From the IMG/VR virus record IMGVR_UViG_3300013103_000001, positions 5,424-69,423 of that record: a stretch of 64,000 nt of DNA. One strand, given 5' to 3'. This DNA is from a virus. The first letter of the stretch is position 1; each line of letters begins with the position of its first letter. The notes beneath the pieces are model-generated. The model worked only from the letters and a program-made list of their open reading frames with translations, was not told where the DNA came from and made no database searches. Made by a program: the position numbers and the translations under genes. Positions 1,161 through 20,501 of this stretch are shown piece after piece.

Positions 1161-1198
1161 AGTAATAAAAAAAGAGAAAAAAGAAAATATTAATATTT

Positions 1199-4100: not shown

Positions 4101-4243
4101 TCTATCTCTTCGGTGGAAGTGTAAGAGAGAGGAGATATTTTAACGCATGAGTTGATTTTTTTAGGGTGTACCTCTTGGCTTATTGGGACTGTGACCGCGA
4201 GGAGGAGAGCAAAAAATAAGACTATATACTTTTTTTGAATCAT
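1199..4243 (-). CDS. Exported surface glycoprotein: signal peptide, jelly-roll-like domain, Ig-like/carboxypeptidase-regulatory-like repeats, C-terminal multi-TM domain
   Basis: N-terminal signal-like MIQKKYIVLFFALLLAV; repeated Ig-like motifs (SDNVGV, ASDSYGN, YANDTDDN, YANNTYG, YANDTYGN, TDKDGVA, TNTNGEA); many NxS/T sequons; about 8 TM helices at the C-terminus. Confidence 0.8.
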   Translation of the reverse strand: MIQKKYIVLFFALLLAVTVPISQEVHPKKINSCVKISPLSYTSTEEIDYIYPTSIGSVFFSGSPNYNNVSNVREIDGAYVDLKEKLNDHRSFWEFFLDEEFLQVFQISIRIYGKEDDANTALKLYIFNFGTSFWELIAPSVMPNGDPWSWYNYTYSVNLSYFENKERVKFKLESFALGFGAGDWFIDYIELQVNGTVDEELPNIHNFWVEPESLNSSSDITLNSTISDNVGVASVSLSFTGDVGSTYNMTFVQDITENNVSHHYYYIARLPAGNWSATLRASDSYGNENSSRLDFRVNRSETGSKVHPQILWDTESLVANIGQNITVNIVVQNGTNNISKIWVYDETLGQNVTLAEPNNKTTVGLTYNVTSGTGGTYDVIFYANDTDDNLAISSILVTFEVPDDKPIVQNIFVNDSYLGIGYYTNITFTVMTKYFNIDSVWYRNINGDNTTVVTDVVAQIGRYSIVLTSTEARSEVIKLYANNTYGQESYENVLITWAVLETPPDFTMIAVNDSYLSVDYTAELEWKVKSTEYNISFTWVYNSLIGENTSFYSVGSSGEFLFSTDFTSHSEGAYNFTVYANDTYGNIASIETTIRWYALVYKLTFLVTSNLGTSVENASITIENGVHNISETIFTDKDGVASIELYNDTYSYTVSAPGYISISSAVELSSNTIERVILNPTPGKFVLAITVVYVTRVRASGVTVIVQNSSATFTSVTNTNGEASFVLEGGDYVIKVEEYPFYAPQETSVHLEKDTVISITIYKTFFTLSTIRGTGVIMLDILPIIVSIAVAAVLYKKLKLKKSILASGLTLLASSIILQSYTYYAVAGVFISVAVIPFILGELMGLPGCSKFELQYLDETALTIIITIVASVFLSDSMLYLMGYDHIFPSSLQPLSIPTFGVILGAGIFLGIFYGAKVITKFKILEITSVKTLIKIVLIVSIALLSTMLVFDFLDFPNVFPPFLEYLGLTCLGVSFSLYVFLKLKDFVNIYVALGLSVIAALLACILVDALFLL

Positions 4244-4274
4244 AATTAAAAATAACGAAAAAAGATATAAAAAA

Positions 4275-5579: not shown

Positions 5580-5764
5580 TCGACCACCTTATATTTCACT
5601 TGCCCTTCTTCTGCGAAGGCTTCAATTTGCTTCCAAGACATCAGCGAGTTCAAGACTCTCCTTACTAAGAGTTTTTCTTCGTCTCCCAGAGCGTCTAAAA
5701 GCTCTCTAAAAGATAACGGCTTGTCGGCTAGTAAAAAGAGGACTTTATCTTTTATTTCATGAAT
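5576..5764 (-). CDS. Unannotated ~60-aa winged helix-turn-helix-like protein with non-canonical start (ATT 5764 or ATA 5755)
   Basis: Open frame IHEIKDKVLFLLADKPLSFRELLDALGDEEKLLVRRVLNSLMSWKQIEAFAEEGQVKYKVVE* fills the helicase-ligase gap; its TGA overlaps the ligase ATG (ATGA). Confidence 0.6.
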   Translation of the reverse strand: MHEIKDKVLFLLADKPLSFRELLDALGDEEKLLVRRVLNSLMSWKQIEAFAEEGQVKYKVVE

Positions 5765-7557: not shown

Positions 7558-8072
7558 TTTTTGTCACCAGAATATAATTGTTTAAGGGTCTTGTTTATGT
7601 TTGCCCTTAATTTAATTAAAAAAAGGACCCTGTGGTCTGTACACAGCCCTGAACCCCAGCCTGGGATATTAGACGCTGGAAGTTCACAAAGGCGGCATCG
7701 TGATTTTTTAACAACAACTATATCTTTCCCTGAGTTAAATAAGTCGACTAAGTCTTCTGGGAGAGAAATTGAGTTGAACGAGATAATCGTATCGAGCATT
7801 GAAGCTAACTCTTCGTTCTTAAATTTGTAAATCGCGAGGAGTCTTAGTTTTTCGAGCTCACTATAAGGGTTAAAAAAAAGAATAGAAGATTCATAAGCAG
7901 TTACTGGTGTTTTAGTGTGAAAAGAAGCTTTTTGGTAATGAGGGAAGATAGGGCACTTCGTGTGGAGGTCTGTAAGACACGTATTTTTGACATATTCGTC
8001 TTTCCCAGTTTTTGGGAGGAAACAAATGTCTATATATTTACATTTTGACGACTTTCTCACCTCCGCAAACAA
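7554..8072 (-). CDS. Hypothetical protein with Cys/His clusters (possible Zn binding)
   Basis: CKYIDIC...C...HTKC and CRLC...CTDH; coupled to the helicase. Start uncertain. Confidence 0.6.
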   Translation of the reverse strand: MFAEVRKSSKCKYIDICFLPKTGKDEYVKNTCLTDLHTKCPIFPHYQKASFHTKTPVTAYESSILFFNPYSELEKLRLLAIYKFKNEELASMLDTIISFNSISLPEDLVDLFNSGKDIVVVKKSRCRLCELPASNIPGWGSGLCTDHRVLFLIKLRANINKTLKQLYSGDKK

Positions 8073-9057
8073 TCGCGTTTATAAAGTCGACGTCCCAAGA
8101 CGCTGCTCTTGCTGCGACTGTCTGGAGTTCTTCTCTCTCGACTGGGTCTTCAGACGCGATCGATATTTCTTTTACGACATCCCAAAGAGAACTGAGTTCT
8201 TTGTCTGCCAAAAACTTTTTTGGGAGCTTGAAGAACTTCCTAAAATCTTCGACGAACTTTTTTTCGTCTTCGATCTCGATCTCTTTCGCTCTTGTAATAG
8301 ATTCGACGAGTCGTCGGGACACTTTGCGGCAGTTCTCTATCGCTCCTTTCACATAAAGCGAAAGTAAGCTCTTCCACTTTTCAGTGTCTTTCATATAATG
8401 AGTCCTCCTAAAGAAAGAGAACTCGTTTTGAATTTGCTCTATCAGCCCGATGTGTTTGTTATCACCAGTGAGAATGTGTACGTACCCTTTAAGTTTTATA
8501 CTAGAAAGGCCAGCGTTTGAAGTTATTAAATAAAGCCCTGTTGTCGCTTCATCTCCGTCAATCTGGACTTTTGTCTCTGGGAAGAGAAATTCATAAGAAC
8601 ACCTTTCCAGAGAAAAAACTCGGACTTTGGGAGTCACCGGGCCGTTTATATTTTTTTCTACTATCTCGAGGATCTCGTTATCTTTAAGATAGGAGAAATT
8701 TGGGCTCACTATCCTCCAAAGTTTTGGTTTCGATTTATCGAAGTCTATTGTACTAATTTTTAGGTCTCTCTTCCTCTCGTGGAGCAAGTGGAGGACGAGT
8801 TCTTGGAGGTCGTCCTCGTTGAAAAAAGTTGACGGGACTGTAGAGCACAAATATTTAAAAAAACTTAACGGCATTTTGAGTTTCCTCAAGAACTGTTCTT
8901 TGAGGTACCCAGTAAGTTCATGTTCCTGGCCCTCAAATTGTATTTCGAGTTCGAAGTTGTTTTTTAGCTTAACACTTAGCTCCTTTGGGGCAATTATATA
9001 GTCGTGGACTTCGGCTTCTTCCCAGAGTCTTTTAGCTTTGCTGTAGTTCGTCTTCAT
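8038..9057 (-). CDS. DUF932-like phage/plasmid protein
   Basis: IVSPNFSYLKDNEILE and GLYLITSNAGLSSIKLKGYVHIL resemble DUF932 motifs; start at MKTNYS with GGAGG RBS. Confidence 0.6.
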   Translation of the reverse strand: MKTNYSKAKRLWEEAEVHDYIIAPKELSVKLKNNFELEIQFEGQEHELTGYLKEQFLRKLKMPLSFFKYLCSTVPSTFFNEDDLQELVLHLLHERKRDLKISTIDFDKSKPKLWRIVSPNFSYLKDNEILEIVEKNINGPVTPKVRVFSLERCSYEFLFPETKVQIDGDEATTGLYLITSNAGLSSIKLKGYVHILTGDNKHIGLIEQIQNEFSFFRRTHYMKDTEKWKSLLSLYVKGAIENCRKVSRRLVESITRAKEIEIEDEKKFVEDFRKFFKLPKKFLADKELSSLWDVVKEISIASEDPVEREELQTVAARAASWDVDFINAIVCGGEKVVKM

Positions 9058-9337
9058 CGTCCTCCTTTGTCTTTTTTTCACTTTCATCGAAAAAAGGCAA
9101 GAACTTATTCAAAAACAATTGAAATTTGCAGATTTTCTTCCTGTGGTTATACTCATATTGATAACCTGAGACGTTCTTTTTCGAAATAACAAAGACTTTA
9201 TATAGCTTTTCTTCGCCTTCTTGGAGTTTATAGAGCTCTAGCTTCATAAACTCTTCGTCGAGTTCGTCTATTGCAATCTTTTTGTTTGTATATGTCTTAG
9301 AAAAAACTTTATCAGGAGTGTAAATAACTAACTTCAT
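9032..9337 (-). CDS. Hypothetical protein, acidic C-terminus
   Basis: Likely start MKLVIYTP (9337) downstream of a TATA-like TTTATATA; the longer track ORF runs through regulatory repeats. Confidence 0.6.
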   Translation of the reverse strand: MKLVIYTPDKVFSKTYTNKKIAIDELDEEFMKLELYKLQEGEEKLYKVFVISKKNVSGYQYEYNHRKKICKFQLFLNKFLPFFDESEKKTKEDDEDELQQS

Positions 9338-9410
9338 ATGTATAAATATATGAGAAAAAGAATATATAAATATATCTTCTCTGCAGGGAACTATTTTGAG
9401 CGAGACAAAG

Positions 9411-9521
9411 TGTTCAAAAAAGGTTACCTCGACTGTCTCTCGAGGAGCCGGAAAGGAAGAGAGTTTTGAGCTCTTTCGGAGCGACTCCCGAGAGTGTTCA
9501 AAAAGAAGTCTTTTTTGAACA
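9411..9521. promoter_or_regulatory. TGTTCAAAAA motif cluster, including an inverted pair
   Basis: TGTTCAAAAA at 9411-9420 and 9495-9504; TTTTTGAACA at 9512-9521. Confidence 0.7.
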
Positions 9522-9700
9522 ATAAAGAGGAAGAAAAGAGAAGTCTGTAATATAAGGAGAGCGCTTAAAAGGTCCAAAAGCAAGAATTACAAAAATAACA
9601 ATCAAAGTCCGCGTTCAAAAAAAAAAATGAGTTGATGAAAAATAATGGCTAAATTCCTTTATACACAAGTCTCTTTTACTAAGCCTCAGAGAAAGCCTAT

Positions 9701-9949
9701 TTATATGTATATCAATATACTCGCATACCAGACTCCTTTTTCGTTCTTATTGAACTCCCATTGGTCTTTGTTCTTTTGTCTTGGACTTGTAAGTTGAGAC
9801 AAGACTTCTCCTAAGTCGTTCACGTCTAGCTCGACTAACGTGTTCCCGCTGTAAGTGTGTTCTCGCGGTCTTGCATTTGAGACTACTAAAAACCCGCGGC
9901 CTGTTGGCGTTTCTGAGACGTACACCCATATTTTTGTCGTGGCTACCAC
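9701..9949 (-). CDS. Hypothetical protein
   Basis: 82-aa ORF coupled to the upstream gene; no recognised motif. Confidence 0.55.
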   Translation of the reverse strand: MVATTKIWVYVSETPTGRGFLVVSNARPREHTYSGNTLVELDVNDLGEVLSQLTSPRQKNKDQWEFNKNEKGVWYASILIYI

Positions 9950-9951
9950 CT

Positions 9952-10413
9952 TCAGTCCATTAATTTTAAGAAAATAGGGCTGTGAGAAAGCTTAGTCGAG
10001 AGGTATCTCTCTTCATCCTCAGACAAGAGGCCCATACGCACTAGAGCGTCAAGATCTGGGCTTTCTTTGATCTCCCATTCGTCCATCCAATCTAGTTTTT
10101 GGTCCACAAACATAGGTTCGACAGTAGAAAAATTATACTCGAATATTTTCATGAACTCCTTTGTGTCTTTGTCTAACTTTGCCCACTCTTCCTTGAATTT
10201 TTCAGGGAATTTTTCTGCACTTTGTAAGAGCTCGTCTAACTCACAATTAAATAACTTCGTACCTCCTGAGTACGCAGTCACAGTACCATCTGCTTCTATA
10301 GCAAACTTGAGGTCGTTTATTTCTTTCTCTAATGCGGACCTCGCTAAGTTTATTACTGAGAGAACTGGCTTTATACTAGCTTCTAAGTTCTTTGTACGGC
10401 TCGGCTTTGACAT
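9952..10413 (-). CDS. Hypothetical protein with MSKP leader (MSKPSRTK)
   Basis: ATG 10413 preceded by GTGA RBS; wHTH-like C-terminus (LDALVRMGLLSE). Confidence 0.7.
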   Translation of the reverse strand: MSKPSRTKNLEASIKPVLSVINLARSALEKEINDLKFAIEADGTVTAYSGGTKLFNCELDELLQSAEKFPEKFKEEWAKLDKDTKEFMKIFEYNFSTVEPMFVDQKLDWMDEWEIKESPDLDALVRMGLLSEDEERYLSTKLSHSPIFLKLMD

Positions 10414-10514
10414 TTTAATCACTTTATATGTTTTATGATATAAAGCAATTAATAAATCTATCTCAAAAAAAAGAATTTGGAGCTCGCGCCAAATGTATGT
10501 AGGGGGATTCTGAG

Positions 10515-10680
10515 TATAAAAATAAAAAAAGAGGGAGGATTTCGGACGCGAGTTTCTCCTTGAGCGCAGTCTTTCGAGCTAGAGCGCTCGCATGACCTTT
10601 GTGAGGCGCTTTCGTCCCAGAGCCTGCGTGCAGCTAACGACAAAAAAAAGAAGTGATACACGCAAGTCTCTTTCATATTA
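10515..10680 (-). ncRNA. Candidate structured non-coding RNA
   Basis: Downstream of a TGTTCAAAAA+TATA promoter; several complementary stems; ends in a U-tract; the overlapping ORF is not protein-like. Confidence 0.35.
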
Positions 10681-10699
10681 ATCAATACACAACTGGTCA

Positions 10700-10728
10700 T
10701 ATATAAACTTTTCTATCTTTTTTGAACA
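10700..10728 (-). promoter_or_regulatory. Promoter: TGTTCAAAAAAG, purine-rich BRE, TTTATATA
   Basis: Minus strand reads TGTTCAAAAAAGATAGAAAAGTTTATATA. Confidence 0.7.
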
Positions 10729-10751
10729 GATAAGAGCCAAAAATGCGGCTT

Positions 10752-11768
10752 TCAAGCAGTGGCCTCCGATTTTGAGCGCGGTATCCCGGCTATTGGAGGA
10801 GCGGACCCTAGCTCTTTTTTCAAGCGGAGCACAGCGCGACTCAAATCGAGGGGTCTGGTTATCGGGAAGCGCTTTTCGAGTTTTTGGAGCGGGTCTATTA
10901 CTATTAAATTAGTGTTAGGGACAGTTATAAGAAATGGGAACGGCCCTTTATGTTTTTGGAGAGGAGGAGAGCGAGTTATTCGAGTTTTCAAAGAGTCTTT
11001 CAAGAGCAAGAGGAAATAGTCAATTCCTTTGAATTTAGGGAGAGACCCTAAGAGAGAGAAAAGGGAGAGAAATTTTTTAGGAGAGTATATATCTTTGATG
11101 CATATTGAAGTCGAGCTATCGAAAAAGAAACTTAGTCTAGAGTCGATAACCCTAGCTAGGTCTGTGAGGACAGAGTGCAGAGTCGAGGTGTCTTCACTCT
11201 CGAACTCTACCTTTAAGAACGGCGAGAAGTGCTTATCGAAATAAAAATGAGGAAAGCTGATCTTAAAGCGCTCGCATAGCTCTGCTCTCTCTTTAGAGTA
11301 TATCTTTTTATTTAGTTTAGAGATATACTCGTCGAGCTCGTCGTGCACGTCGACTGCTCCTCTCGCTAACTCTAAGAGCGCGTTTTGAGGAGCGTTGACA
11401 GCAGGAGTCTTCGCAGCAGCTTTGCCCGCAGCGTAGAAGAACTCAGGTTTCGTCCTCTGGGAAGCGTCGCTTAAAGCTATCTTGAATATCCAAAAAATAG
11501 AGATAAATTGCAGAGTAGGGACTTCTGGACGAGGGACATAAGCTGTGTCGTTTTTGTCGAAAATGAGCTCGACTTTGACTGAGTCTCTACTTTCGTCTTT
11601 AAAGACCTCTTCGACTCGAGACATTAAGCGACTTATCGCGAGCTCTCTTACTTGTGTGAAGTCCCTTTTGTCTACTAGAGCGACGAGTTCTTTGCCTCTT
11701 ATCACTAGTTTAACGAGGTGTGACTCTAAGACTTCAGGGATTAGAGCTTTGTCTAGTTCGACCATCAC
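10752..11768 (-). CDS. Hypothetical protein, distant member of the 17490-23960 paralog family
   Basis: IKDIYSPKKFLSLFSLLGSLPKFKGI matches the family module (e.g. LENPFLPSVFNRLCVGLGFLPKIEGI). Confidence 0.65.
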   Translation of the reverse strand: MMVELDKALIPEVLESHLVKLVIRGKELVALVDKRDFTQVRELAISRLMSRVEEVFKDESRDSVKVELIFDKNDTAYVPRPEVPTLQFISIFWIFKIALSDASQRTKPEFFYAAGKAAAKTPAVNAPQNALLELARGAVDVHDELDEYISKLNKKIYSKERAELCERFKISFPHFYFDKHFSPFLKVEFESEDTSTLHSVLTDLARVIDSRLSFFFDSSTSICIKDIYSPKKFLSLFSLLGSLPKFKGIDYFLLLLKDSLKTRITRSPPLQKHKGPFPFLITVPNTNLIVIDPLQKLEKRFPITRPLDLSRAVLRLKKELGSAPPIAGIPRSKSEATA

Positions 11769-12064
11769 CTAAAAGACACTCCAACGTCGTACAAAGTCTT
11801 GTCAGAGGGTTTAGGGTAAATAATTATATACTCAGTCAAAATACCGTATTTTTTTGCGTCCTCTGGCTCTACTAAGACGTAAAGTTCCTTTATTTTGCCT
11901 TTAAAATCGGCAGTGTGACTCGTGAGGACTCCTTTTACTGAAATCCCTGGAGAGAGCTCTACTATTACTTTGTTAGTCGGACAGCTGTCGAGAGCTGTTT
12001 CTATAAGAGGGATCGAAGCTTTCTCCTTTCGTGGAGAGGAGCGAGATTTTTTTGGTCTAGACAT
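11765..12064 (-). CDS. Small protein with MSRP leader, possible Sm/LSm-like fold
   Basis: MSRPKKSRSSPRKEK leader; KVIVELSPGISVKGVL resembles the Sm1 motif. Confidence 0.55.
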   Translation of the reverse strand: MSRPKKSRSSPRKEKASIPLIETALDSCPTNKVIVELSPGISVKGVLTSHTADFKGKIKELYVLVEPEDAKKYGILTEYIIIYPKPSDKTLYDVGVSFR

Positions 12065-12106
12065 ATCGATCACTAAATATATTTATGGAAAAGAGATATA
12101 AAAAAG

Positions 12107-12841
12107 TTATCTAGTGCGGAAAAAGGAAGTCAGGCTCGCAGCATTTTTAAGCCTCCTTAGTTGAGTCACGTAAGCTTTAAAATAACTCAAATTCCTCTTG
12201 ACGTAAATAGGGTGGTACATCGGGTAGACTACGAAGCTTTTATACGTAAGTCTTTTGAGCACTTTTCTTGAAGGAGGGCATTTCTTCCCTACTATCTCTC
12301 TCATAGAGCCGAAATTGCCTATGAAAGTCTTACAAGGTACCCTCCCGAGCGGGACGACGACTTCAGGCCTCATTATCTGGAGTTCTCGGTCTATCACCCA
12401 CATGCACGCTTTAATTTCATCAAGGAGCGGCTCTCTGTTGTTTGGGGTAGAGCAACGGAGGAGATTGCATATATAAACATCTGTTGATATGTTAATTCCA
12501 CTTTTAGAAAGCGCTTGGAAAAAAAGATTCCCAGTTTGACCTCCGTAAAAAGTATAGACGTCGACGTCCTGGTCGTCTAAAGGTTCGTAGTCTTTAAAAT
12601 CGCGAGGTTCTAAAGTAGCTTTGATAGCTTTGACGTTCTTCCCTAGGACCCAACGAGAGCAACTTGGAGCAACTCCGACAAAATAGTATTTAGCGTGCGG
12701 AGACCCGTACCCAAAAAAGGGCCCTAAAGAGTGAAGTCGTGAGTCATAATGGTTTACGTTGAGAGTTTTAAGTTGAGGGCACTTCTTGCACTTTCTGATT
12801 TCACTATTCAATTCTAGAAGTTTTTTCATTTTTTCTATCAT
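12107..12841 (-). CDS. Uracil-DNA glycosylase, family 4-like (Fe-S)
   Basis: CKKCPQL, VGVAP, NLLRCSTPNNREP, C, LG, YHP; PIP-like C-terminus SLTSFF. Confidence 0.88.
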   Translation of the reverse strand: MIEKMKKLLELNSEIRKCKKCPQLKTLNVNHYDSRLHSLGPFFGYGSPHAKYYFVGVAPSCSRWVLGKNVKAIKATLEPRDFKDYEPLDDQDVDVYTFYGGQTGNLFFQALSKSGINISTDVYICNLLRCSTPNNREPLLDEIKACMWVIDRELQIMRPEVVVPLGRVPCKTFIGNFGSMREIVGKKCPPSRKVLKRLTYKSFVVYPMYHPIYVKRNLSYFKAYVTQLRRLKNAASLTSFFRTR

Positions 12842-12905
12842 TAATTAAAAAAAAGAAAAATAGATATTTTAATATTTTTATATATTTCTGTCAAGTCAAA
12901 GGAGC

Positions 12906-13139
12906 TCAGAGCGGACTTTCAGAGATACGTGTAGGGTATTTCGTGTTTTTCTGGAAATTGTAGACAAAGATTTCTGATTTTTCCGGTCTTGGAGAGTAGT
13001 GGTCCTTGCTGTCGTAACAAGAGTCTGCAATGCACGAGAAACAGTTCATTTCGTGGTCTTCTCCGAAAAATAGATAAACGAGGTTCATACAGGACTTGCA
13101 TGGTTCTTTGAGCTCGTTATATAAGTCCTTCATTTTCAT
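12906..13139 (-). CDS. Small Cys-rich hypothetical protein
   Basis: CKSC, CFSC; leaderless start 22 nt after a TTTTTATA box. Confidence 0.6.
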   Translation of the reverse strand: MKMKDLYNELKEPCKSCMNLVYLFFGEDHEMNCFSCIADSCYDSKDHYSPRPEKSEIFVYNFQKNTKYPTRISESPL

Positions 13140-13159
13140 ATTTTATATATAGAAATGAT

Positions 13160-13193
13160 AGTATAAAAATATTTCTCATAACTTTTTTGAACA
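13160..13193 (-). promoter_or_regulatory. Promoter cassette (motif + BRE + TATA), 34 bp identical to 16013-16046
   Basis: Plus strand agtataaaaatatttctcataacttttttgaaca at both sites. Confidence 0.85.
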
Positions 13194-13408
13194 GTTTCAG
13201 CCTGTTGCAGGTGTTGCCCGCAGAAAGATGGGACAAGAAAAAAGAGGACGGCGCACTGCAACAGATTGCTGCTGTCTGTTGTAAACAGGAGATAGAGTCT
13301 TTATATTAAAGTAAGTTCGTCCATCTTTTTTTAATAAAAAAATTTCAATTGAGACCGCCCATTTTCGGAGGCGACCCGCTCTAGGCCTGCTCCTAGAGTA
13401 GCGCACTG

Positions 13409-13591
13409 CTATTCTTTGTAACGCCGAGATTCGATATATCGCAGAAAAGTACGCGCGTCGACTAAAGAGCTGACAAAGTTGTGTTTGTCTTCGCTCTCTG
13501 GTAAGTCGTTAATTGCACTGTTGATACACTTAGTAATGCAGGCGAAAGCTCTAATAAAATTAAAGCCCTCGTCCTCACCGTCATAAGTTAT
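13409..13591 (-). CDS. Unannotated 60-aa ORF (ATA start or -1 frameshift extension of Csx15)
   Basis: ITYDGEDEGFNFIRAFACITKCINSAINDLPESEDKHNFVSSLVDARTFLRYIESRRYKE*; ATA overlaps the Csx15 TAA; T_TTT_TTC at 13603-13609. Confidence 0.45.
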   Translation of the reverse strand: MTYDGEDEGFNFIRAFACITKCINSAINDLPESEDKHNFVSSLVDARTFLRYIESRRYKE

Positions 13592-13974
13592 TTTGAAGAC
13601 GCGAAAAAACGCGAATCTCTCGCAGTTAACCGGACTTTTTGCAAGTCAAAAGTGTTGCTCAACGCAAAACTCCCTGCTTCTGTCCTGTAAGTATACCGGA
13701 TCTTTGGGAAGTGGCCCGATATACCGTGCAAGACTACTAGCATCGTGTTTGAGAGGACTGACATCCCCGGTAAGACAATCTCGTACCGTCCTTTTAAGAT
13801 TTCATCAGTGTACTTCTCATATATAGGTCGTAACAACTGGACGATAGTGTCTATGACTTTCTGAGGAGTGCTCAAGTTTGCTGTCGAGATTTCAGAGTTG
13901 ATAACTTCGTACCCTTTAGGCGTAGTTGGCAGTGGGTGGCCGCTAAAATTAAATAATAATATTTTCTTTGCCAT
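13588..13974 (-). CDS. csx15: Csx15-like protein (putative cyclic oligoadenylate ring nuclease/binder)
   Basis: ILLFNFSGHPL; VLPGMSVLSNTMLVVLHGISGHFP; DLQKVRLTARDSR match Csx15 hallmarks (NFS-HPL, LHGxxGxFP, LQxVRxxARxxR) and family length. Confidence 0.75.
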   Translation of the reverse strand: MAKKILLFNFSGHPLPTTPKGYEVINSEISTANLSTPQKVIDTIVQLLRPIYEKYTDEILKGRYEIVLPGMSVLSNTMLVVLHGISGHFPKIRYTYRTEAGSFALSNTFDLQKVRLTARDSRFFASSK

Positions 13975-14090
13975 TACATATCACCATTACCGTTGCATTC
14001 TTTGCAGGCCCTGATTAGGGCTTTAACGTAGGGTCGTCCTACGTCTACTGTGCTTGGGGACACAGTAGACTCCGTGGTGGCCTTACTCAT
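13974..14090 (-). CDS. 38-aa peptide with CxxC
   Basis: MSKATTESTVSPSTVDVGRPYVKALIRACKECNGNGDM*; ATGA overlap upstream and TAATG overlap with csx15. Confidence 0.45.
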   Translation of the reverse strand: MSKATTESTVSPSTVDVGRPYVKALIRACKECNGNGDM

Positions 14091-14230
14091 TGGAATATCT
14101 TCCCTTTTTCTTCAATAATATTGTTTATGAGGCTTGAAAGTCTTTGCTTAGCCTTAGTTGGAGACACGTCCATCTCCGACCTTATTTGTTGAAGAGTCTT
14201 TATGATTTTCACTTTATTTATTTCTTTCAT
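14087..14230 (-). CDS. 47-aa hypothetical protein
   Basis: MKEINKVKIIKTLQQIRSEMDVSPTKAKQRLSSLINNIIEEKGKIFQ*; first ORF after the 14267-14300 promoter. Confidence 0.55.
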   Translation of the reverse strand: MKEINKVKIIKTLQQIRSEMDVSPTKAKQRLSSLINNIIEEKGKIFQ

Positions 14231-14266
14231 TTTATACACTTTTTTATTATAATTATTGAGCGCGAT

Positions 14267-14300
14267 AGTATAAAAATGTTTCTATCAACTTTTTTGAACA
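14267..14300 (-). promoter_or_regulatory. Promoter cassette variant upstream of the csx15 operon
   Basis: agtataaaaatgtttctatcaacttttttgaaca, same spacing as 13160-13193. Confidence 0.8.
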
Positions 14301-14302
14301 GT

Positions 14303-14340
14303 AAAAAAACAAAAAAAAGAAGAGGACTCGAGTCCTCTTC
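14303..14340 (-). terminator. Palindromic hairpin plus U-tract terminator
   Basis: Perfect 22-bp palindrome GAAGAGGACTCGAGTCCTCTTC (14319-14340) followed on the minus strand by T8-G-T7. Confidence 0.7.
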
Positions 14341-14353
14341 GTAATTAAGACAC

Positions 14354-14638
14354 TCAGTTTTCTTTGTACGATTTAATTATTTTTTCTTTACGCTTCTTTA
14401 TTTCTGTTGAGAAATACTTATAGACTGCAGACCACAGTAAAACGAATGGTATGACACTTAGGACTGCTGTTATTATATTCACAAACACAAAGGAGCAAAA
14501 AAACGCAAAAAAGGCCCAAAAAAATGTCGCCACGTTTATAACTCCTTTTTTACTCTCGAGTTCGTTGACTACAGACTTAATCGACTCGTTTATTTTATAT
14601 TGTTTTAGTCTTTTCTCTTTGTCGTCCGCTTTATTCAC
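14354..14638 (-). CDS. Small 2-TM membrane protein
   Basis: Central hydrophobic hairpin, basic termini. Confidence 0.65.
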   Translation of the reverse strand: MNKADDKEKRLKQYKINESIKSVVNELESKKGVINVATFFWAFFAFFCSFVFVNIITAVLSVIPFVLLWSAVYKYFSTEIKKRKEKIIKSYKEN

Positions 14639-15116
14639 CTTCGTAATCGTCGAACTGCAGTTCTGGGTATTCGATATACCCTTTGACTAAGAACCTAAAC
14701 ATGTCGCTCCTCGGGCGGAATTTACACGGCAGTTTGCAGAACTCTTCTAACTCTATATAAGTACCGCGGTATTTGGACTCATTGGTCTTGTTTTTCGCGC
14801 CGAGGAGTTTAGCGAGGTTCCCTGACACTCCACTTTTCATCGCCTCAGGGAGGCCTAGAGTGTCAATGACGTCCTCAGGTAAAAATAACTGGCCGTCTCG
14901 GAACACTCGCCCGTCGACAAAGTACCCGTCAAACTCTCGAGCGTTGTTCAGAATTGCGGCGAGCAGTTCTGCTGGTAGAGACTTGATAGTCTCGCACAAG
15001 TGCATAATGACTTTTATTCGAGTTGATGGGCTACTCCAGCTATTCCGCACGTCTTCCATCGTGACTCTCAAAAAGAGTATTTTTTCATCTTCGTCTAATT
15101 CTTCTAAATATTCCAT
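14631..15116 (-). CDS. Hypothetical protein
   Basis: 161-aa ORF with GAGGTG RBS; no recognised motif. Confidence 0.7.
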   Translation of the reverse strand: MEYLEELDEDEKILFLRVTMEDVRNSWSSPSTRIKVIMHLCETIKSLPAELLAAILNNAREFDGYFVDGRVFRDGQLFLPEDVIDTLGLPEAMKSGVSGNLAKLLGAKNKTNESKYRGTYIELEEFCKLPCKFRPRSDMFRFLVKGYIEYPELQFDDYEGE

Positions 15117-15287
15117 TTATAACACCTCAAATATCTTCTCGTCGGCGACGAGCTTCGTTATACGCACGCACATAGAATAAAGTTCTAGGTGAGGGATGAT
15201 GTGAGCTTTAAAAAGTTTAGCGAATTCTTGCATCAACACTAACTTACCTGTGTGCTTAATATACACGATTTGCTCGTCCTCGTTCAA
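15117..15287 (-). CDS. 56-aa hypothetical protein (TTG start)
   Basis: MNEDEQIVYIKHTGKLVLMQEFAKLFKAHIIPHLELYSMCVRITKLVADEKIFEVL*; TAA abuts the next ATG. Confidence 0.5.
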   Translation of the reverse strand: MNEDEQIVYIKHTGKLVLMQEFAKLFKAHIIPHLELYSMCVRITKLVADEKIFEVL

Positions 15288-15354
15288 CAGCTCTCTCGCT
15301 TTTCTCTAGGAGTCTTTTTTAACTTGAATTCATATGTCTTTCCTTTCATACATT

Positions 15355-15828
15355 TTACACCTCTCTACAGTCGAAGTGAACAGCCTGGACGCCGCTCATT
15401 TTTTTGTCGATATAGTCGATGATAACGTCGTCGTCGTCGATTACAGTGACGTTTTTGAACTTTTTAGAGATGCTTTTTATAGCGCTTATTTTAAAACTCC
15501 AATATTGTTTATAATACTTTAGGAGAGTAAGCTTAGAATTAAAAGCAGGGTACTCTTTTCTTTTGTCTTTAAAAAAAATGACCTCGTCGAACTCGTACCC
15601 TGCTGTAGAGAGGAGCTCGAGGAGTTTTCGTTCTAAAAACTGGCCTCTCCCTGTGAGGAGGACGTTCACAGAACTATTGTTAAGAGGTATAGGGAGCGAA
15701 GAGCCGTCGACGATATTATCTTCATAGAGCTCGTCGTACTTGTGGTCAGTGTCTCTATAAATAACGTTATCGAAGTCGTAGATAACACAACTACTGTTCT
15801 TTTTCGTTTTTAATTTCACAAAAAACAC
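15355..15828 (-). CDS. HAD-superfamily phosphatase (PNKP/RNA-repair type)
   Basis: Motif I YDFDNVI, motif II LLTGR, K, motif IV IDDD. Confidence 0.8.
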   Translation of the reverse strand: MFFVKLKTKKNSSCVIYDFDNVIYRDTDHKYDELYEDNIVDGSSLPIPLNNSSVNVLLTGRGQFLERKLLELLSTAGYEFDEVIFFKDKRKEYPAFNSKLTLLKYYKQYWSFKISAIKSISKKFKNVTVIDDDDVIIDYIDKKMSGVQAVHFDCREV

Positions 15829-15991
15829 CTTCCTTAAGGACCGATAGACAGTCTTCCGACCAAAAAGCAGCTATTTCGAGGACTTCTCGAAACAATATTC
15901 TTTTTTTTTGCAAAGAAACTCTGTCATATTTTTCCAGGAGAGCTGAGACAACGAACTCTCTCAACTCTCTCACGCTGTCGAACTTTTTCAT
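15791..15991 (-). CDS. Small hypothetical protein
   Basis: Leaderless ATG just downstream of the 16013-16046 promoter. Confidence 0.65.
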   Translation of the reverse strand: MKKFDSVRELREFVVSALLEKYDRVSLQKKRILFREVLEIAAFWSEDCLSVLKEGVFCEIKNEKEQ

Positions 15992-16012
15992 ATTTTTATA
16001 TATAGGAACTAG

Positions 16013-16046
16013 AGTATAAAAATATTTCTCATAACTTTTTTGAACA
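16013..16046 (-). promoter_or_regulatory. Promoter cassette identical to 13160-13193
   Basis: 34-bp exact duplicate. Confidence 0.85.
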
Positions 16047-16060
16047 CGAGAGGAGGAGCA

Positions 16061-16510
16061 CTATTTTAAGAATTTTAGAAAAGTTTTCAAGTCTACAATA
16101 TGAGGAGACCTCTTCCTTAACCAAGGAGGGAGGCCCTCGACGAGCCAATCTCTCCCTTCTTCATTAATAATAACAAAAGGAGAGTTAGGCTTCAATTTTG
16201 TAAAATGATTGATTGTATTAAACGAACCAGACCGAAATTTTCTTTTTTTTATGAAAGCTATGAGAAAATCAGACTCTAAGGCTATGAGTTTATTTCTCTT
16301 GAAATACTCCTCCCTAGAAGGGAAAGAGGGGAGAAAAACTCTAAAGGGTATATTAGACTCTTTAGCATATCTTTCAGCAAACGAGTCTACTCCAACAGCT
16401 CCTCCTGAGACAATCATAACTTTAGCTGTGGAGCACACTTTGTCTAAGATGGAAAAAACTAAGGACGAGTTTCCAAACGTCCTATTTCCTACGACGCCAA
16501 TCTTTATCAT
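16061..16510 (-). CDS. SLOG-family protein (YspA/DUF2493-like)
   Basis: IGVVGNR, IVSGGAVGVDSFAE, KRNKLIA, DFLIAF, SGSFNTI. Confidence 0.85.
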   Translation of the reverse strand: MIKIGVVGNRTFGNSSLVFSILDKVCSTAKVMIVSGGAVGVDSFAERYAKESNIPFRVFLPSFPSREEYFKRNKLIALESDFLIAFIKKRKFRSGSFNTINHFTKLKPNSPFVIINEEGRDWLVEGLPPWLRKRSPHIVDLKTFLKFLK

Positions 16511-16635
16511 TTGGAGCCAATGCCAGCCGGCTAGATAATAAAGAAAAGTGGGAATTCAAACAGGAGAGGATAAACGAGTGCGCCGCTGTACAGAGGTTTC
16601 TCCTCGACTGGGCATAGTTAAATATAACAACAATT

Positions 16636-16669
16636 TGTTTAAAAATCTTTCTATTAACTTTTTTGAACA
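16636..16669 (-). promoter_or_regulatory. Promoter cassette variant
   Basis: Minus strand TGTTCAAAAAAGTTAATAGAAAGATTTTTAAA. Confidence 0.7.
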
Positions 16670-16793
16670 AGGCGAGAGGGAGGCGAACGCCACTCGTCAG
16701 CGAGTGTGAAAAACCGAAAAACTTGCACCCAGGGCTAGGGTCTTAAACTTTATTAAAAAAGAAATATAATTTATAAGCGTGAGGCTTCGGTGT

Positions 16794-16861
16794 GGTCAAG
16801 AAAGTACCCAGCTAATTCTTGAACAAATTAGTTCAAAAATACTGCAGTGCCTTTTTGAACA
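16794..16861. repeat. Array of four alternating inverted half-sites upstream of the resolvase (putative res site)
   Basis: GGTCAAGAA 16794, TTCTTGAAC 16816, GTTCAAAAA 16831, TTTTTGAAC 16852. Confidence 0.6.
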
Positions 16862-16894
16862 ATGTTTTTATATCCTGAAAGCCTACTTTTAATT

Positions 16895-17509
16895 ATGAAA
16901 ATAGTGATCTACGGGCGAGTCTCTACTGACTTGCAAGACATAAAGCCTCAAATAGAAGAGCTGAAAGAGTACGCTTTAAAATTAACAGATGAAAAAAACA
17001 TCAAAATTTTATACGACATAGAGAGCGGAGCAAACTCAAAAAGAAAAGATTATGAGAGCTTAAAAGAGCTCGTCTTCAAAAAAAAAGTGGACTTAGTCTT
17101 AGTTTGGAAACTGGATAGGCTCGCGAGAAACGTAAGAGAGCTGATAGATTTTTTCACTTTATTAGACGAAAACGGAGTTAATATAAAAATCTATACCCAA
17201 AACATTGACACTACGACTCCTACAGGTAAATTAATGTTCTATATAGTCGCTGCTTTCGCTGAGTTTGAGAGGGACTTGATCCGAGAGCGGATCAAATTGG
17301 GGATGCGGAGGACTGAAAAAAAAGTCGGGAGAGCGAGAATTTCAGACGATACGATAAAACAAATATATTTGCTGAGAAAAAAAGGGAAGAGCTACTCTCA
17401 AATAACAAAAGAACTCGAAGTCTCAAAAGGGACTGTTGCTCGATATATTAGGGCAATAGAAACAATTAATATGGTCGTTAGGTTTTTGTTTAGACCTCTG
17501 AATCTATAA
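16895..17509 (+). CDS. Serine recombinase (resolvase/invertase) with C-terminal HTH
   Basis: MKIVIYGRVST (catalytic Ser), Q, SG, VWKLDRLAR, IDTTTPTGKLMF, AEFER, HTH SYSQITKELEVSKGTVARY. Confidence 0.95.
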   Translation: MKIVIYGRVSTDLQDIKPQIEELKEYALKLTDEKNIKILYDIESGANSKRKDYESLKELVFKKKVDLVLVWKLDRLARNVRELIDFFTLLDENGVNIKIYTQNIDTTTPTGKLMFYIVAAFAEFERDLIRERIKLGMRRTEKKVGRARISDDTIKQIYLLRKKGKSYSQITKELEVSKGTVARYIRAIETINMVVRFLFRPLNL

Positions 17510-18989
17510 CGAGGCACGCTACTTCTTCTTTAGGGAGGTTTTTCAATTTTGGGACTCTCCCTAACAGTTCTGAGAGCGCTTTGAAATTTCTTGGGTGTAA
17601 AGGGAAGGACTTATCGTCGTCTAGTGACTTTTCTAAACCATAACTTTCGAGCTGCGACTGGAGTATAGGGTCGTTTACGAAGATAGCGTTGTTCTCTGGG
17701 CGGTAGTTTAATTTTTCTTCGATTTGAGCATAGTTTAAATCAGGAGGGCCGAGCCTCGCGTTCGCGTCAGCTATTATTGCACCAGGTGACTGGGTAACTT
17801 GTCCTATTAACTTTAGTTTTTTGAAGAGCTTTTTGTGGTCCATTCCAATTATTGGAGTGACGTAGCCTAGAGTTTTGAAGAGCCTCAAGAGGATATGTAG
17901 GTAATTAGTATTACCGACAACGGTGTACGGGACTTCAGGCTTAAGTATTATCGGGACTTCTTTCAAGTCAATAGAACAGTCTTTGAGTAAAATAAGGTTA
18001 ACTGTAGTAGCTACTTTGTCTTCTTTTCCTCCAAAACTAGCTGCGACTAGCTTTATGGGAGGGTCGGGGTTGTAAGGAATTTTCGTCCAAGCTGCTGCTT
18101 TTTTGATTACTTCTTCTTTGTCGACTTTCTCCATCACGTCCCGATTTGAGTCGCAGAAAAGCGTGAAACGAGCAGTCTTTTTCTCTGGTCGGAACCCAGA
18201 CTCTTTACAGAACGGGGCGAAGACTTCAGGTCGGTGGAAGTTAGGGACGAATAGACTGTCTTTGGAGTTGAGAGTGAAACACACGTCTTTGTATTGGTAG
18301 AACCTCTCGAGGAAGTCTACGAACTCTTCTTTCTTAGTCTTTTTGAACTTTATTGCTGCTGCGTTGAGTGCTGGGATGTACACTGTGACCTTTTCTATGT
18401 CATTTCCTAGAGCGTAGTCAGACTCAATTAAGCTTTCGAACGTCTTCAACCTCTCGTGGAGAGGAGCGGTGAACTGAAAAAAACAAGGAAAGTACGCCAC
18501 AGAGCTGGGTACGTAGCGTAGAGCGTTTAAAATAGCGGCGAGAGTATCAGGAGATGCAGGGATGTCAAAAATTGACTTTATTTTTTTCCCTAGGTACGAA
18601 GATATCCGGTAGGTCAGGTACCTTACTTTTTCTTCGGGGAGAGGAGGGTCGCCTTCTATAGGCTCGACGATGAAGTCTTCGCCGTTATACTCTATGGTAA
18701 TGCGAGACAAGTAGTCGTCGCCGTCTTCGAAGAGCCTGCTTAAAGACTCTCCGACTGCTACGTTGAGTTTTTTTTCCATCATATATTTATTAGCAGGTTT
18801 TTCTAATTTGAGGTATACTTCTCTTTTTTTGAAGTCTAATACTTCTTCGAAAGGAGGGAACCCTACTCTCGCGAGGTCTTCTCTCGTGAGAGAAGAGACT
18901 GCTCCCACTATATTTTTGTCGTGTATTTCAGTTGGCTTTTTAGTCTGTTTTTTTGAGCTTTTTATCTTTTTGGAGGAAGGTTTTGACAT
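17490..18989 (-). CDS. ~500-aa paralog A with MSKP leader
   Basis: MSKPSSKKIKSSKK; C-terminal LGRVPKLKNLPKEEVACL shared with the next two genes. Confidence 0.8.
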   Translation of the reverse strand: MSKPSSKKIKSSKKQTKKPTEIHDKNIVGAVSSLTREDLARVGFPPFEEVLDFKKREVYLKLEKPANKYMMEKKLNVAVGESLSRLFEDGDDYLSRITIEYNGEDFIVEPIEGDPPLPEEKVRYLTYRISSYLGKKIKSIFDIPASPDTLAAILNALRYVPSSVAYFPCFFQFTAPLHERLKTFESLIESDYALGNDIEKVTVYIPALNAAAIKFKKTKKEEFVDFLERFYQYKDVCFTLNSKDSLFVPNFHRPEVFAPFCKESGFRPEKKTARFTLFCDSNRDVMEKVDKEEVIKKAAAWTKIPYNPDPPIKLVAASFGGKEDKVATTVNLILLKDCSIDLKEVPIILKPEVPYTVVGNTNYLHILLRLFKTLGYVTPIIGMDHKKLFKKLKLIGQVTQSPGAIIADANARLGPPDLNYAQIEEKLNYRPENNAIFVNDPILQSQLESYGLEKSLDDDKSFPLHPRNFKALSELLGRVPKLKNLPKEEVACLVIDSEV

Positions 18990-18995
18990 TTTTAA

Positions 18996-20501
18996 TCACC
19001 AATATCCCATTGTGAGGCACGCTATCTCCTCTTTTGAGAGCCCTTCGACTTCAGGGACTGTTTGGAGCACTTCACACAGCTTATTAAAGTCTGATGGGTT
19101 CGCCCACAAATTTCTCTTAGAGCTGATATAGCCTCTTGCTATCAATTCGTTTTTAACTTTATCTTCAATAATTATTTTGCCGTTGCTATATTTGACTTTG
19201 GAGCCGCGGTATTCCTCGTCTGGGAGGCCGAACGACTGCTTAGTCCTCTCGATGACGTCAGTAGGGTCTTCGACTATGTCGACTAGGTTCGAGAGTATGC
19301 TGTGCATCCTGCGATAAGGGACTCCTGTGATTGCTTTCGGGAACCCCAAGACTTTAAAAGTCTTGTAGAGGACTAATAAGTTAGACATACCGCTGACTTC
19401 GAGGAGCTTCCCGTTTTTTTGCGAACAAGAGACTCCTTCTTTCCGGAGGAGCGTCTCGACCTCTTCTTTGTCGCGCTGGTCTATGTCGTCGAGGTAGACG
19501 AAAAAGTGGTCGTTCACGTTGCTATTTAAGAGGTGGATGTCTGTCTTCCAATATGAAAAATCCGCGACAGGTTCGCGAAAGTTAACAGCGAAATTCGCTA
19601 GAGCTGAAGTTATATTTCGTATCTTTTTAGCCCTGAGCGTTTTTCGTTCTTCTCTAGCGAGGTCCTGTAGTCTAGACTCCCCCATAGAGATGAGAGGAGT
19701 CAACTCGTTTACAGGGACAAAACCTGCTGCAGCACAGAACGTGAGGAACACTTTAGGGTCTTGGACATCAGGGACAATCACGTGAGAGTCTGTCACAAAG
19801 AGCTCTACGTCGCTCCCAAATGAGAGCTCTTCGAGCATGTTAGAGAGCTCCCCACCTATTGGCTCTTTGGACTTTAGTATTAAAGCTAGCCTACCATCTC
19901 GACTGACTGTGGAGTGTACGTAGTCGAAGAGGTGTTTAGACCCTCTCGAGAATTTGTGTTCTTTGACGAACTCGCGCGCTTTTTCGACGAACTCTTTAGT
20001 CTCTTTCTCGATGTCCAAGAGGTCTCTAATCAAGCTGGGGTCCACGCCATTTGGTACGCAGTCTAGACCATACATAATAGCAGGGAGAGCACGTCGGCTA
20101 TAAGGGATTTCGTCTAAGTCAACTTTTTTAGTATTTAGAGCTGTAGCGATCTTTCTCTCTACTGTGAGTCTTTTAGGGTCTATCATCTTCGCACTTACTT
20201 TGAAAGCGTCTTTCTCTTTGTCGTAAGTTATAGACGCTTTTTTTTCTAAATAGAAATAGTCAGTAAAAAACTTTTGGTTGAGGTCTCTTACGATGTTCTC
20301 TAAAATAGTTTTTTTAACCAAGTCTTTAGAGTTAAGAAAGGACTTTAGAAAAATTTTCTTCTCTTTGAGGTCTATTCCTAAAGAGCCCACAAAGGGAGAG
20401 AGGCCTAAGTACGAGACTGCGTCTATGATATCTCTATCTCTCACAATTATAGGTTTTTTATTCTCTTTTTTAGGCGGTTTATAACTCTTCGGTCTAGACA
20501 T
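18996..20501 (-). CDS. ~500-aa paralog B with MSRP leader
   Basis: True start MSRPKSYKPPKK at 20501 (GTGA RBS); C-terminal VPEVEGLSKEEIACL. Confidence 0.8.
   Translation of the reverse strand: MSRPKSYKPPKKENKKPIIVRDRDIIDAVSYLGLSPFVGSLGIDLKEKKIFLKSFLNSKDLVKKTILENIVRDLNQKFFTDYFYLEKKASITYDKEKDAFKVSAKMIDPKRLTVERKIATALNTKKVDLDEIPYSRRALPAIMYGLDCVPNGVDPSLIRDLLDIEKETKEFVEKAREFVKEHKFSRGSKHLFDYVHSTVSRDGRLALILKSKEPIGGELSNMLEELSFGSDVELFVTDSHVIVPDVQDPKVFLTFCAAAGFVPVNELTPLISMGESRLQDLAREERKTLRAKKIRNITSALANFAVNFREPVADFSYWKTDIHLLNSNVNDHFFVYLDDIDQRDKEEVETLLRKEGVSCSQKNGKLLEVSGMSNLLVLYKTFKVLGFPKAITGVPYRRMHSILSNLVDIVEDPTDVIERTKQSFGLPDEEYRGSKVKYSNGKIIIEDKVKNELIARGYISSKRNLWANPSDFNKLCEVLQTVPEVEGLSKEEIACLTMGYW

Follow-up and report, generated by a model that had tools for sequence, protein, structure and literature searches.

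Viral ring nucleases reveal which host signals viruses must silence. The question raised by the locus described here is whether a virus that carries a gene of the Csx15 family uses its product against the cyclic tetra-adenylate (cA4) signal of type III CRISPR systems. Our material was a stretch of 64,000 nucleotides (nt), hereafter called the window, which comprises bases 5424–69423 of the 69,423-bp IMG/VR virus record IMGVR_UViG_3300013103_000001; coordinates are those of the window unless another contig is named. An earlier note, made from the letters of the window alone, had placed a stand-alone viral Csx15 homologue at 13588–13974 and had read it as an early-expressed anti-type III factor, a ring nuclease or cA4 sponge from a family other than AcrIII-1. 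We find that the gene encodes a Csx15 protein which, by analogy with its characterized homologues, probably helps the virus to silence the type III alarm molecule. An anti-type III role of viral Csx15 has already been proposed in print, and the idea is not new; what is new here is a conserved open reading frame (ORF) in the −1 frame behind the viral gene.

The Csx15 gene and its key residues

13588–13974, minus strand: viral Csx15 gene, 128 amino acids (aa), ATG start; profile and structure-chain matches

The ORF has exactly the boundaries given in the earlier note. Its product matched the NCBIfam profile NF040560 (CAS_Csx15) with an E value of 8.2e-12 and a score of 45.4 bits, against a curated cut-off of 35, and residues 7–122 aligned with positions 2–125 of the 125 in the profile. 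When the same profile was rerun on the whole virus genome in six frames, the score was 43 bits, again above the cut-off. The PADLOC Csx15 model also matched the protein (E 6.2e-8), as did PDB chains named Csx15 when they were compared with the single 128-aa sequence (9tet_A, E 2.6e-5; 9teu_A, E 0.0077), so that the check by profile and structure chain, which the earlier note had proposed, came out in favor of Csx15. For a family profile we aligned 52 single-domain members, leaving aside the two-domain forms of ~310 aa, fragments, and most proteins with long N-terminal extensions; NF040560 matched 51 of these 52 relatives, and the viral protein is ~30–37% identical to most family members. This profile found 9teu_A at 1.6e-16, 9tet_A at 2e-15, and the Schlafen-Csx15 fusion CbCash (9ylu_A) at 2.1e-9. 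Scans of the protein against Pfam and PHROGs gave nothing significant. We conclude from its sequence that the 128-aa protein is a true member of the Csx15 family, which comprises small sensors of cyclic oligoadenylates that are Rossmann-like and related to SAVED and CARF proteins.

The residues of interest lie on two faces of the protein: S11 and H13 on the head face, and H83, F103, and the arginine triad R115, R119, and R122 (spacing R-x3-R-x2-R) on the tail face. Across the 52 family members H13 and G87 are invariant, and conservation is 90% or higher at N9, S11, P14, P69, G70, G84, P90, L111, R115, and R119. In profile-to-PDB alignments the viral S11/H13/H83/R115/R119/R122 align with S9/H11/H82/R116/R120/R123 of PfCsx15, and H13/H83/F103 align with H13/H90/Y113 of CliCsx15; the PDB entries were assigned to Pf or Cli, and the numbering offsets set, from the residue spacing. 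Mutants altered at H11/R123 (Pf), H13/H90 (Cli), or H8/R118/R125 (Ha) are reported to have lowered or lost oligomerization, sequestration, or cleavage, and the mutated residues sit at the dimer–dimer interface (Chi et al., bioRxiv 10.64898/2026.01.21.700848; Klimavicius et al., bioRxiv 10.64898/2026.10.26.761840). Judged by these alignments, the viral protein keeps all the residues shown by mutagenesis to matter for cA4 binding or cleavage in the characterized Csx15 proteins.

The virus record has direct terminal repeats and a CheckV completeness of 100%, and a script found an exact 123-bp repeat at both of its ends. A six-frame search of the whole 69,423-bp record for Cas10 (TIGR02577, TIGR02578), RAMP (PF03787), and Cas1 (PF01867), the only cas families searched, gave 0 matches, with positive controls. 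Tandem Repeats Finder reported 0 arrays in the window, and a direct-repeat search found five families, each of two copies only. By these families and arrays the viral gene has no type III CRISPR-Cas association in its own genome, as expected for a viral copy. Because no cas machinery was found in the record, the Csx15 copy is stand-alone, in agreement with the earlier note.

Predicted fold and dimer

The AlphaFold2 model of the protein is alpha/beta, with a predicted local distance difference test score (pLDDT) of 94.7 and a predicted template modeling score of 0.86. No PDB chain matched the model in Foldseek at E ≤ 0.001; the weak rows were rich in CARF and SAVED proteins and included 9r8s_A (E 0.048, prob 0.84, TMq 0.42). 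In a Foldseek-free search of 48,161 chains the top nine were all SAVED-domain proteins, from 8tl0_A (Z 7.6, root-mean-square deviation (rmsd) 4.5, 116 residues aligned) to 6vm6_A in ninth place (Z 5.9, rmsd 3.2, 104 aligned), and none reached Z 8. The outputs of these searches contained no Csx15 entry and hence no direct superposition. The SAVED-heavy matches of the model agree with the published similarity of Csx15 to SAVED and CARF proteins and are not decisive alone.

A symmetric homodimer was predicted with a score of 0.86 in all three runs, the best of three controls scoring 0.00; contact agreement was at least 98%, and the pLDDT of the partner at least 89. For calibration, 20 of 30 proteins with structures solved as pairs reached the mark, as did 1 of 23 with structures solved as single chains. 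Because Csx15 dimers have already been solved, this pass may reflect likeness and is not proof.

Relatives and phylogeny

Only three close relatives, at 98, 71, and 59% identity, were found in a word-indexed search, whereas an exhaustive profile search of 1.84 billion representatives gave 146 proteins at E ≤ 0.001, 41 of them at E ≤ 1e-10. In a maximum-likelihood tree built from 62 sequences of Csx15, the window protein formed a monophyletic clade (support 99/88) with other proteins from viral genomes or from mobile genetic elements (MGEs), namely P0001, P0002, P0003, and L002. Sister to this clade (support 98/90) is P0150, which NCBI lists as the Csx15 of a metagenome-assembled genome (MAG) of Candidatus Helarchaeota; other Csx15 proteins of the phylum linked to the virus by nrdD (G001, G057, G054; see below) were placed elsewhere in the tree. 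Within the viral clade all the key residues are invariant at 59–71% identity and across at least three viral/MGE lineages, which argues for selection.

Peptide-pattern scans of IMG/VR (alignments A1 and A4) found no relative, and tblastn of Csx15 against a phage genome collection, from which the virus's own or near records may be excluded, gave no match. The same collection contained no megablast match to window positions 1–25000 and no match to a 513-aa paralogue.

Among the best matches of the viral-clade profile (E down to 1.6e-21) were proteins of ~310 aa with two Csx15 domains in tandem (P0008, P0009, P0010, P0013, P0029). Tandem two-domain forms also occur in two genomes of the inferred Asgard phylum, G197 (L040/L043) and G154 (L041/L044). 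Such proteins fit the idea, put forward by Klimavicius et al., that SAVED originated by Csx15 duplication.

A conserved start-less reading frame behind Csx15

13603–13609, minus strand: heptamer T_TTT_TTC (Csx15 codons CGT TTT TTC, four codons before the stop), candidate −1 slippery site
13409–13603, minus strand: ORF of 64 codons that lacks a start and is in frame −1 to Csx15, from 13603 down to 13412, with stop TAG at 13409–13411

Two metagenome contigs (L002 and L003) carry a Csx15 that is 59% identical to the viral protein. When their six-frame ORFs were compared with those of the virus at E ≤ 1e-4, only Csx15 and the stretch directly downstream of it were shared. The heptamer T_TTT_TTC is invariant in the window, L002, and L003. 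The −1 frame is open for 64 codons in both lineages, with the same end length, and identity between the two −1 peptides is 39% over 56 aa (E 2e-13). The BLOSUM score of the −1 frame against the −1 frame was 114, and that of the other eight frame pairings was at most 27. In the −1 frame the proportion of nonsynonymous differences (pN) was 0.436 and that of synonymous differences (pS) was 0.85, with synonymous sites saturated; the values for Csx15 itself were 0.288 and 0.889. The same columns read in the other two frames gave pN > pS, with 5 and 13 stop-containing codon pairs. Because the conservation is specific to this frame, and pN is below pS in this frame only, we conclude that the −1 stretch is coding, in a comparison that comprises only two independent lineages. 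The contigs of the second lineage also carry an ORF of 190 aa before Csx15 (L002 8790–9362; L003 5800–6372), in which a P-loop-like GVASSGKST was seen by eye near the N terminus.

Members of the viral clade end in RFF plus 1–4 residues and not soon after the arginine triad. Distant or cellular Csx15 genes (L004, L005, L006, L009, L036) have their stop directly after the triad, with neither the Phe-Phe codons nor a comparable ORF.

The −1 frame of the window is devoid of ATG, GTG, and TTG. In L002 the sole start of this kind, an ATG, comes at codon 26, beyond the best-conserved part, and the frame opens only 2 codons before the heptamer, giving an overlap of ~26 nt. Slippery sites for −1 frameshifting follow the rule of an in-frame X_XXY_YYZ heptamer. 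A heptamer in the frame overlap combined with a start-less conserved −1 ORF is, as read from sequence, the anatomy of a programmed −1 frameshift. We put forward as possible, and only tentatively, that a −1 slip at T_TTT_TTC, either ribosomal or through one U added to the U6 run in transcription, yields a Csx15 isoform of ~188 aa in which the last four residues are replaced by a 64-aa two-helix extension. A conserved stimulatory RNA structure 5–9 nt downstream is lacking, which counts against frameshifting: the hairpin of the window is ~25–30 nt away (z −2.88), and L002 has none (z +1.30). Alternatively, the −1 ORF may encode a separate small protein. An ATA that overlaps the Csx15 stop (AAAATAA) is conserved in both lineages and could be the start of a separate peptide of 59 aa, a rival to the frameshift. 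The VWA gene of the virus has a similar ending (30195–30215, minus strand): it ends AAA TAA, followed by an in-frame ATA, with AAGGAGGG (GGAGG) just upstream and a second start-less ORF after the stop, which hints at ATA initiation or readthrough there.

The heptamer is covered by contigs of two further studies, X2 record 7 (13494–13644) and X3 record 10 (13370–13621), with 0 differences and no indels. Because these contigs agree across the heptamer, an assembly error is unlikely; the heptamer is likewise covered by the X1 contig, which may be from the source sample.

The predicted ~188-aa product would keep the arginine triad, and its extension is predicted with modest confidence as two helices (AlphaFold2, 3 sequences: pLDDT 71.2). 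The extension would sit on the tail face beside the triad, the docking site of the next dimer; a minority isoform could therefore cap or tune the filament that depends on cA4, or link cA4 sensing to a further activity. Among proteins of near lengths the extension peptide had no homologue, and the ESM Atlas gave no usable match to it; it belongs to no recognizable effector family. Three sets of candidates were set aside. Two marginal matches in 400 genomes of the inferred Asgard phylum (E 0.0013 and 0.0086 per genome) were treated as chance. The in-frame C-terminal extension of P0044, alike by eye to the −1 ORF, gave BLASTP E values of 1.8 and 48. Nineteen IMG/VR loci with the DNA pattern around the heptamer were also attributed to chance, 0 of the 19 encoding Csx15 by tblastn with 52 members.

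No frameshift in a ring-nuclease or anti-CRISPR gene was described in the literature searched, and the words "frameshift", "slippery", and "C-terminal extension" are absent from the main text of Klimavicius et al. (bioRxiv 10.64898/2026.10.26.761840). The conserved −1 ORF could throw light on the regulation of filament-forming ring nucleases and on whether recoding is used by archaeal viruses in counter-defense genes.

Operon and putative promoter

14311–14340, minus strand: hairpin GAGGACTCGAGTCCTC followed by a T-rich run, seen in sequence
14268–14300, minus strand: promoter-like module, with TGTTCAAAAA at 14291–14300, AGTT..AGAAA, and TATA-like TTTTTATAC at 14268–14276
14087–14239, minus strand: operon ORF1, encoding 50 aa (start GTG 14239) or 47 aa (start ATG 14230)
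13974–14090, minus strand: operon ORF2, 38 aa, its stop overlapping the Csx15 ATG (TAATG)
13336–13342, minus strand: T7 run between the −1 ORF and the promoter that follows (13193), seen in sequence

Csx15 is the third cistron of a small operon in which starts overlap the preceding stops, the TGA of ORF1 overlapping the ATG of ORF2 (ATGA) as well. ORF1 had only weak, sub-threshold helix-turn-helix-like Pfam matches (DUF3263, E 0.045; HTH_9, E 0.2), and ORF2 had no family match in Pfam, NCBIfam, or PHROGs. The hairpin at 14311–14340 is probably the terminator of the upstream gene (14354–14638), and the Csx15 operon would therefore be a transcription unit of its own. The T7 run is a candidate archaeal terminator of the operon.

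The decamer TGTTCAAAAA occurs 13 times in the window without a mismatch. Allowing up to one mismatch raises the count to 31, against 11.67 expected (standard deviation 3.29, largest 21; a count of 31 was reached in 0 of 100 shuffles). One conserved module begins with the decamer at five minus-strand copies, whose 5' ends are at 10728, 13193, 14300, 16046, and 16669; its order is decamer, AGTT..AGAAA, T-rich TATA-like box, and a start codon ~30–40 nt further on. The layout is archaeal in type, and we read the module as a putative archaeal-type promoter. The overlapping ORFs and the module common to five units support the claim of a small-ORF operon under a TGTTCAAAAA promoter. They do not show the early expression of Csx15 that the earlier note had also inferred, for which the shared promoter motif is the only ground.

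Seven more exact copies of TGTTCAAAAA lie outside the module at 9411–9521 and 36208–36636, some of them as inverted pairs. The group at 36.2–36.6 kb stands among direct repeats spaced by 91 nt (D3) and may be a regulator-binding or origin region.

Gene content and likely host of the virus

1–771, minus strand: NrdD, cut by the window edge; anaerobic ribonucleotide reductase (NRDD, E 9.6e-40, plus ATP-cone)
16061–16510, minus strand: SLOG/DprA-like protein of 149 aa
L036 3–1634 (minus strand) and 1339–1869 (plus strand): Csx15–Csx1/Csm6 pair of G057; the CARF-HEPN gene was identified by PADLOC and had no Pfam match at E ≤ 0.01

The replication genes of the virus encode a family-B DNA polymerase (PolB), a PriL-like primase subunit, an ATP-dependent ligase, and a Hjm-like helicase. 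It also encodes a family-4 uracil-DNA glycosylase, a MoxR-type AAA protein, a VWA protein, and a serine recombinase (Resolvase, E 5.9e-38), and one open frame exceeds 3000 aa. Among the scanned ORFs we recognized no family of capsid, portal, or terminase proteins, and tRNA and Rfam scans of the window were empty. The best named matches of PolB were haloarchaeal tailed viruses at only 25.7% identity, which do not place the virus. Contigs carrying the stretch came from runs labeled marine sediment and hydrothermal vent metagenomes.

The SLOG/DprA-like protein matched Pfam YAcAr (E 8.7e-10) and, weakly, the PADLOC models ShosA/PsyrA (7.7e-6 and 5.7e-5). Its gene, flanked by the copies at 16046 and 16669, lies within a cluster of small genes with the TGTTCAAAAA module. 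Because the ligands of SLOG domains are regarded as nucleotide-derived, this protein might be a second counter-defense gene product.

The nrdD DNA matched genomes of one phylum, the archaeal phylum of G001, at 79% over 638 nt (G127) and then at 76, 76, 72, and 68%. Window positions 1–20000 were matched by 132 of 400 genomes of that phylum, mostly at nrdD, and by 1 of 400 genomes, through a 33-nt match, of a control phylum (that of G002); this control is weak, because genomes of the G002 phylum are small and may simply lack nrdD. A full-length actin (~447–450 bits) was present in four of five tested nrdD-linked genomes; because bacterial controls also match, it is the score and not the match itself that is informative. 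Profilin was matched in three of the five, one above the cut-off, and in 0 of 14 controls. We take the phylum to be Asgard archaea, which are known for lokiactins and profilins. The virus is therefore probably one of Asgard archaea, its host being assigned through the shared nrdD gene. The virus–host conflicts of these archaea, to which gene content links it, are almost unexplored.

Csx15 was found in 6 of the 400 genomes of the inferred Asgard phylum. In one of them (G057) a Csx15 that is 41% identical to the viral protein divergently adjoins a Csx1/Csm6 CARF-HEPN gene (PADLOC E 5e-90). Types I and III are reported to be the prevalent CRISPR types in Asgard archaea (PMC13700489; bioRxiv 10.1101/2021.07.29.454249). 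These points speak for cA4 signaling in the phylum, and the Cas10 and spacer results given below speak against it. Three short DNA matches (G216, 27 nt at 100%; G303; G144) were considered as spacers and rejected, having no flanking repeats and not lying in arrays.

Role of the viral Csx15 protein

The interpretation that we favor, and regard as moderately likely by analogy with cellular Csx15, is that the virus-borne protein acts against type III immunity as a cA4 binder or ring nuclease that keeps CARF effectors off. Its gene would be the last of three in an operon, translationally coupled to the one before it, and transcription would start from an archaeal-type TATA promoter with an upstream TGTTCAAAAA element common to four other small-gene units. 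The protein would form a symmetric homodimer, and head-to-tail filaments would sandwich cA4, as in cellular Csx15. The cA4 would be sequestered or cut to linear A2 products, and CARF effectors such as Csx1 would hence not be switched on. Binding or cleavage of cA4 and the anti-CRISPR effect are carried over here from characterized relatives; CliCsx15 is reported to relieve cA4/Csx1 plasmid immunity in E. coli (Chi et al.).

Several observations weigh against this interpretation. Nuclease activity is lacking in PfCsx15, which shares the key residues (Chi et al.); because of this, sequence cannot separate a ring nuclease from a sponge. Chi et al. describe Csx15 as a slow nuclease and consider sponging ill suited to the large amounts of cA4 that type III systems produce, and Klimavicius et al. 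note that viral Csx15 is rare and that slow turnover makes it a poor viral tool. In P0150, the sister of the viral clade and the nearest relative with a name, Arg replaces the catalytic His (SGRP, not SGHP), and that protein may for this reason be non-catalytic. Cas10 (TIGR02577, TIGR02578) was found in 0 of the five genomes nearest by nrdD; these are incomplete MAGs and only two families were searched, so that the result is weak evidence, though it points the wrong way. No CRISPR spacer in the 400 genomes of the phylum matched window positions 1–20000. The anti-type III proposal of the earlier note is thus upheld in part: homology, key residues, the predicted dimer, the cas-free virus context, and the promoter-defined operon agree with it, and the Cas10 and spacer results do not.

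The same biochemistry might have been selected against a different target, either CBASS-like (cyclic oligonucleotide-based antiphage signaling system) or other cyclic-oligonucleotide defenses, or several pathways at once. HaCsx15 and CsCsx15 cleave cA3–cA6 together with the CBASS signals 3'3'3'-cAAG and 2'3'3'-cAAA, and such a target has been raised for viral homologues (Klimavicius et al.); the fold matches are dominated by CBASS SAVED domains, and the absence of Cas10 from the five nearest genomes would be in keeping with it. However, Csx15 genes are strongly associated with Cas10 and weakly with CBASS (Klimavicius et al.), and the Asgard cellular homologue adjoins Csx1. We think this alternative unlikely. 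A host-derived passenger, or a dampener of stray cA4 that limits autoimmunity or dormancy in a long-term carrier state instead of acting as an acute anti-CRISPR, appears quite improbable to us. The dampener role has been proposed for cellular Csx15 (bioRxiv 10.64898/2026.01.21.700848), a non-lytic lifestyle is possible because the virus has a serine recombinase and no recognized capsid genes among the scanned ORFs, and the sister of the viral clade is a protein of a cellular MAG. A passenger, however, fits poorly with a gene whose key residues are conserved in at least three viral/MGE lineages down to 59% identity and which stands in a dedicated promoter-driven operon, both of which argue for function; a dampener on an MGE would still deplete cA4, leaving the mechanism unchanged.

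A further possibility is that Csx15 is a viral cA4 sensor and not a quencher, with the −1 extension or small protein reporting that type III has fired and changing the behavior of the virus. In cells Csx15 is the cA4-sensing domain of Cash (Schlafen-Csx15) (PMC13462974), a chain of which (9ylu_A) matches our family profile as given above, and the conserved coding extension is specific to the viral clade. The extension, though, is only 64 aa long and is predicted as two helices outside any recognizable effector family, the fused product is putative, and the published fusions are N-terminal to Csx15 (bioRxiv 10.64898/2026.10.26.761840). We consider a sensor highly unlikely and retain removal of cA4 as the favored role.

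Comparison with known systems

Hoikkala et al. searched 28,114 phage genomes for ring nucleases and reported ~25% of cellular Csx15 in genomes without type III systems (bioRxiv 10.1101/2024.09.24.614671). Chi et al., citing that work, state that Csx15 is in no phage genome, and doubt its use as an anti-CRISPR (bioRxiv 10.64898/2026.01.21.700848). In October 2026 Klimavicius et al. described URC17498 of Lokiarchaeota virus Skoll (Meg22_1214) and more than 20 viral Csx15 proteins from IMG/VR and env_nr; they proposed the name AcrIII-3 for vCsx15, its activity being stated as a proposal only (bioRxiv 10.64898/2026.10.26.761840). Their idea is the same as ours, a Csx15 homologue in an Asgard archaeal virus as a proposed viral ring nuclease, and because the present record is in IMG/VR, the 128-aa protein may already be in their set. 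The likeness is by description only: their vCsx15 is "predominantly restricted to prophage regions", whereas our copy is in a complete record with terminal repeats. The case is a clean one, since the virus genome is complete and terminally redundant and has Csx15 in a dedicated promoter-driven operon.

The viral protein is like cellular Csx15 (CliCsx15, PfCsx15, HaCsx15, CsCsx15; PDB 9teu, 9tet) in family, size, the head-face Ser/His, the tail-face His and Arg triad, and the dimer, which for the viral protein is predicted. Unlike these, it is encoded by a complete virus in which no cas genes were found, belongs to a distinct clade, and has the RFF ending with the conserved −1 ORF behind it. 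AcrIII-1 (viral Crn2/DUF1874) is alike in proposed function, being a small viral dimer that removes cA4. It has an unrelated fold and is a fast enzyme that uses in-line 2'-OH attack, whereas Csx15 works in filaments built head to tail, and some of its members are slow or non-catalytic (Chi et al.); the placing of the viral protein in a family other than AcrIII-1 in the earlier note is therefore correct. AcrIII-2, the viral SAVED ring nuclease (PDB 9r8s), would share with Csx15 a SAVED-type fold and a composite active site formed head to tail. It is a single polypeptide with two pseudo-symmetric halves, in contrast to a predicted homodimer of 128-aa chains, and has no significant sequence similarity to Csx15; the Csx15 dimer has been described as the analogue of one SAVED monomer (Klimavicius et al.). 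If the viral Csx15 is non-catalytic, it would resemble the sponges Acb2, Tad1, and Tad2 in stoichiometric sequestration, as seen with PfCsx15 in vitro. These sponges have different folds, and their target pathways are CBASS and Thoeris. If our interpretation is true, Csx15 would join AcrIII-1 and viral SAVED as a third structural class among the viral quenchers of cA4.

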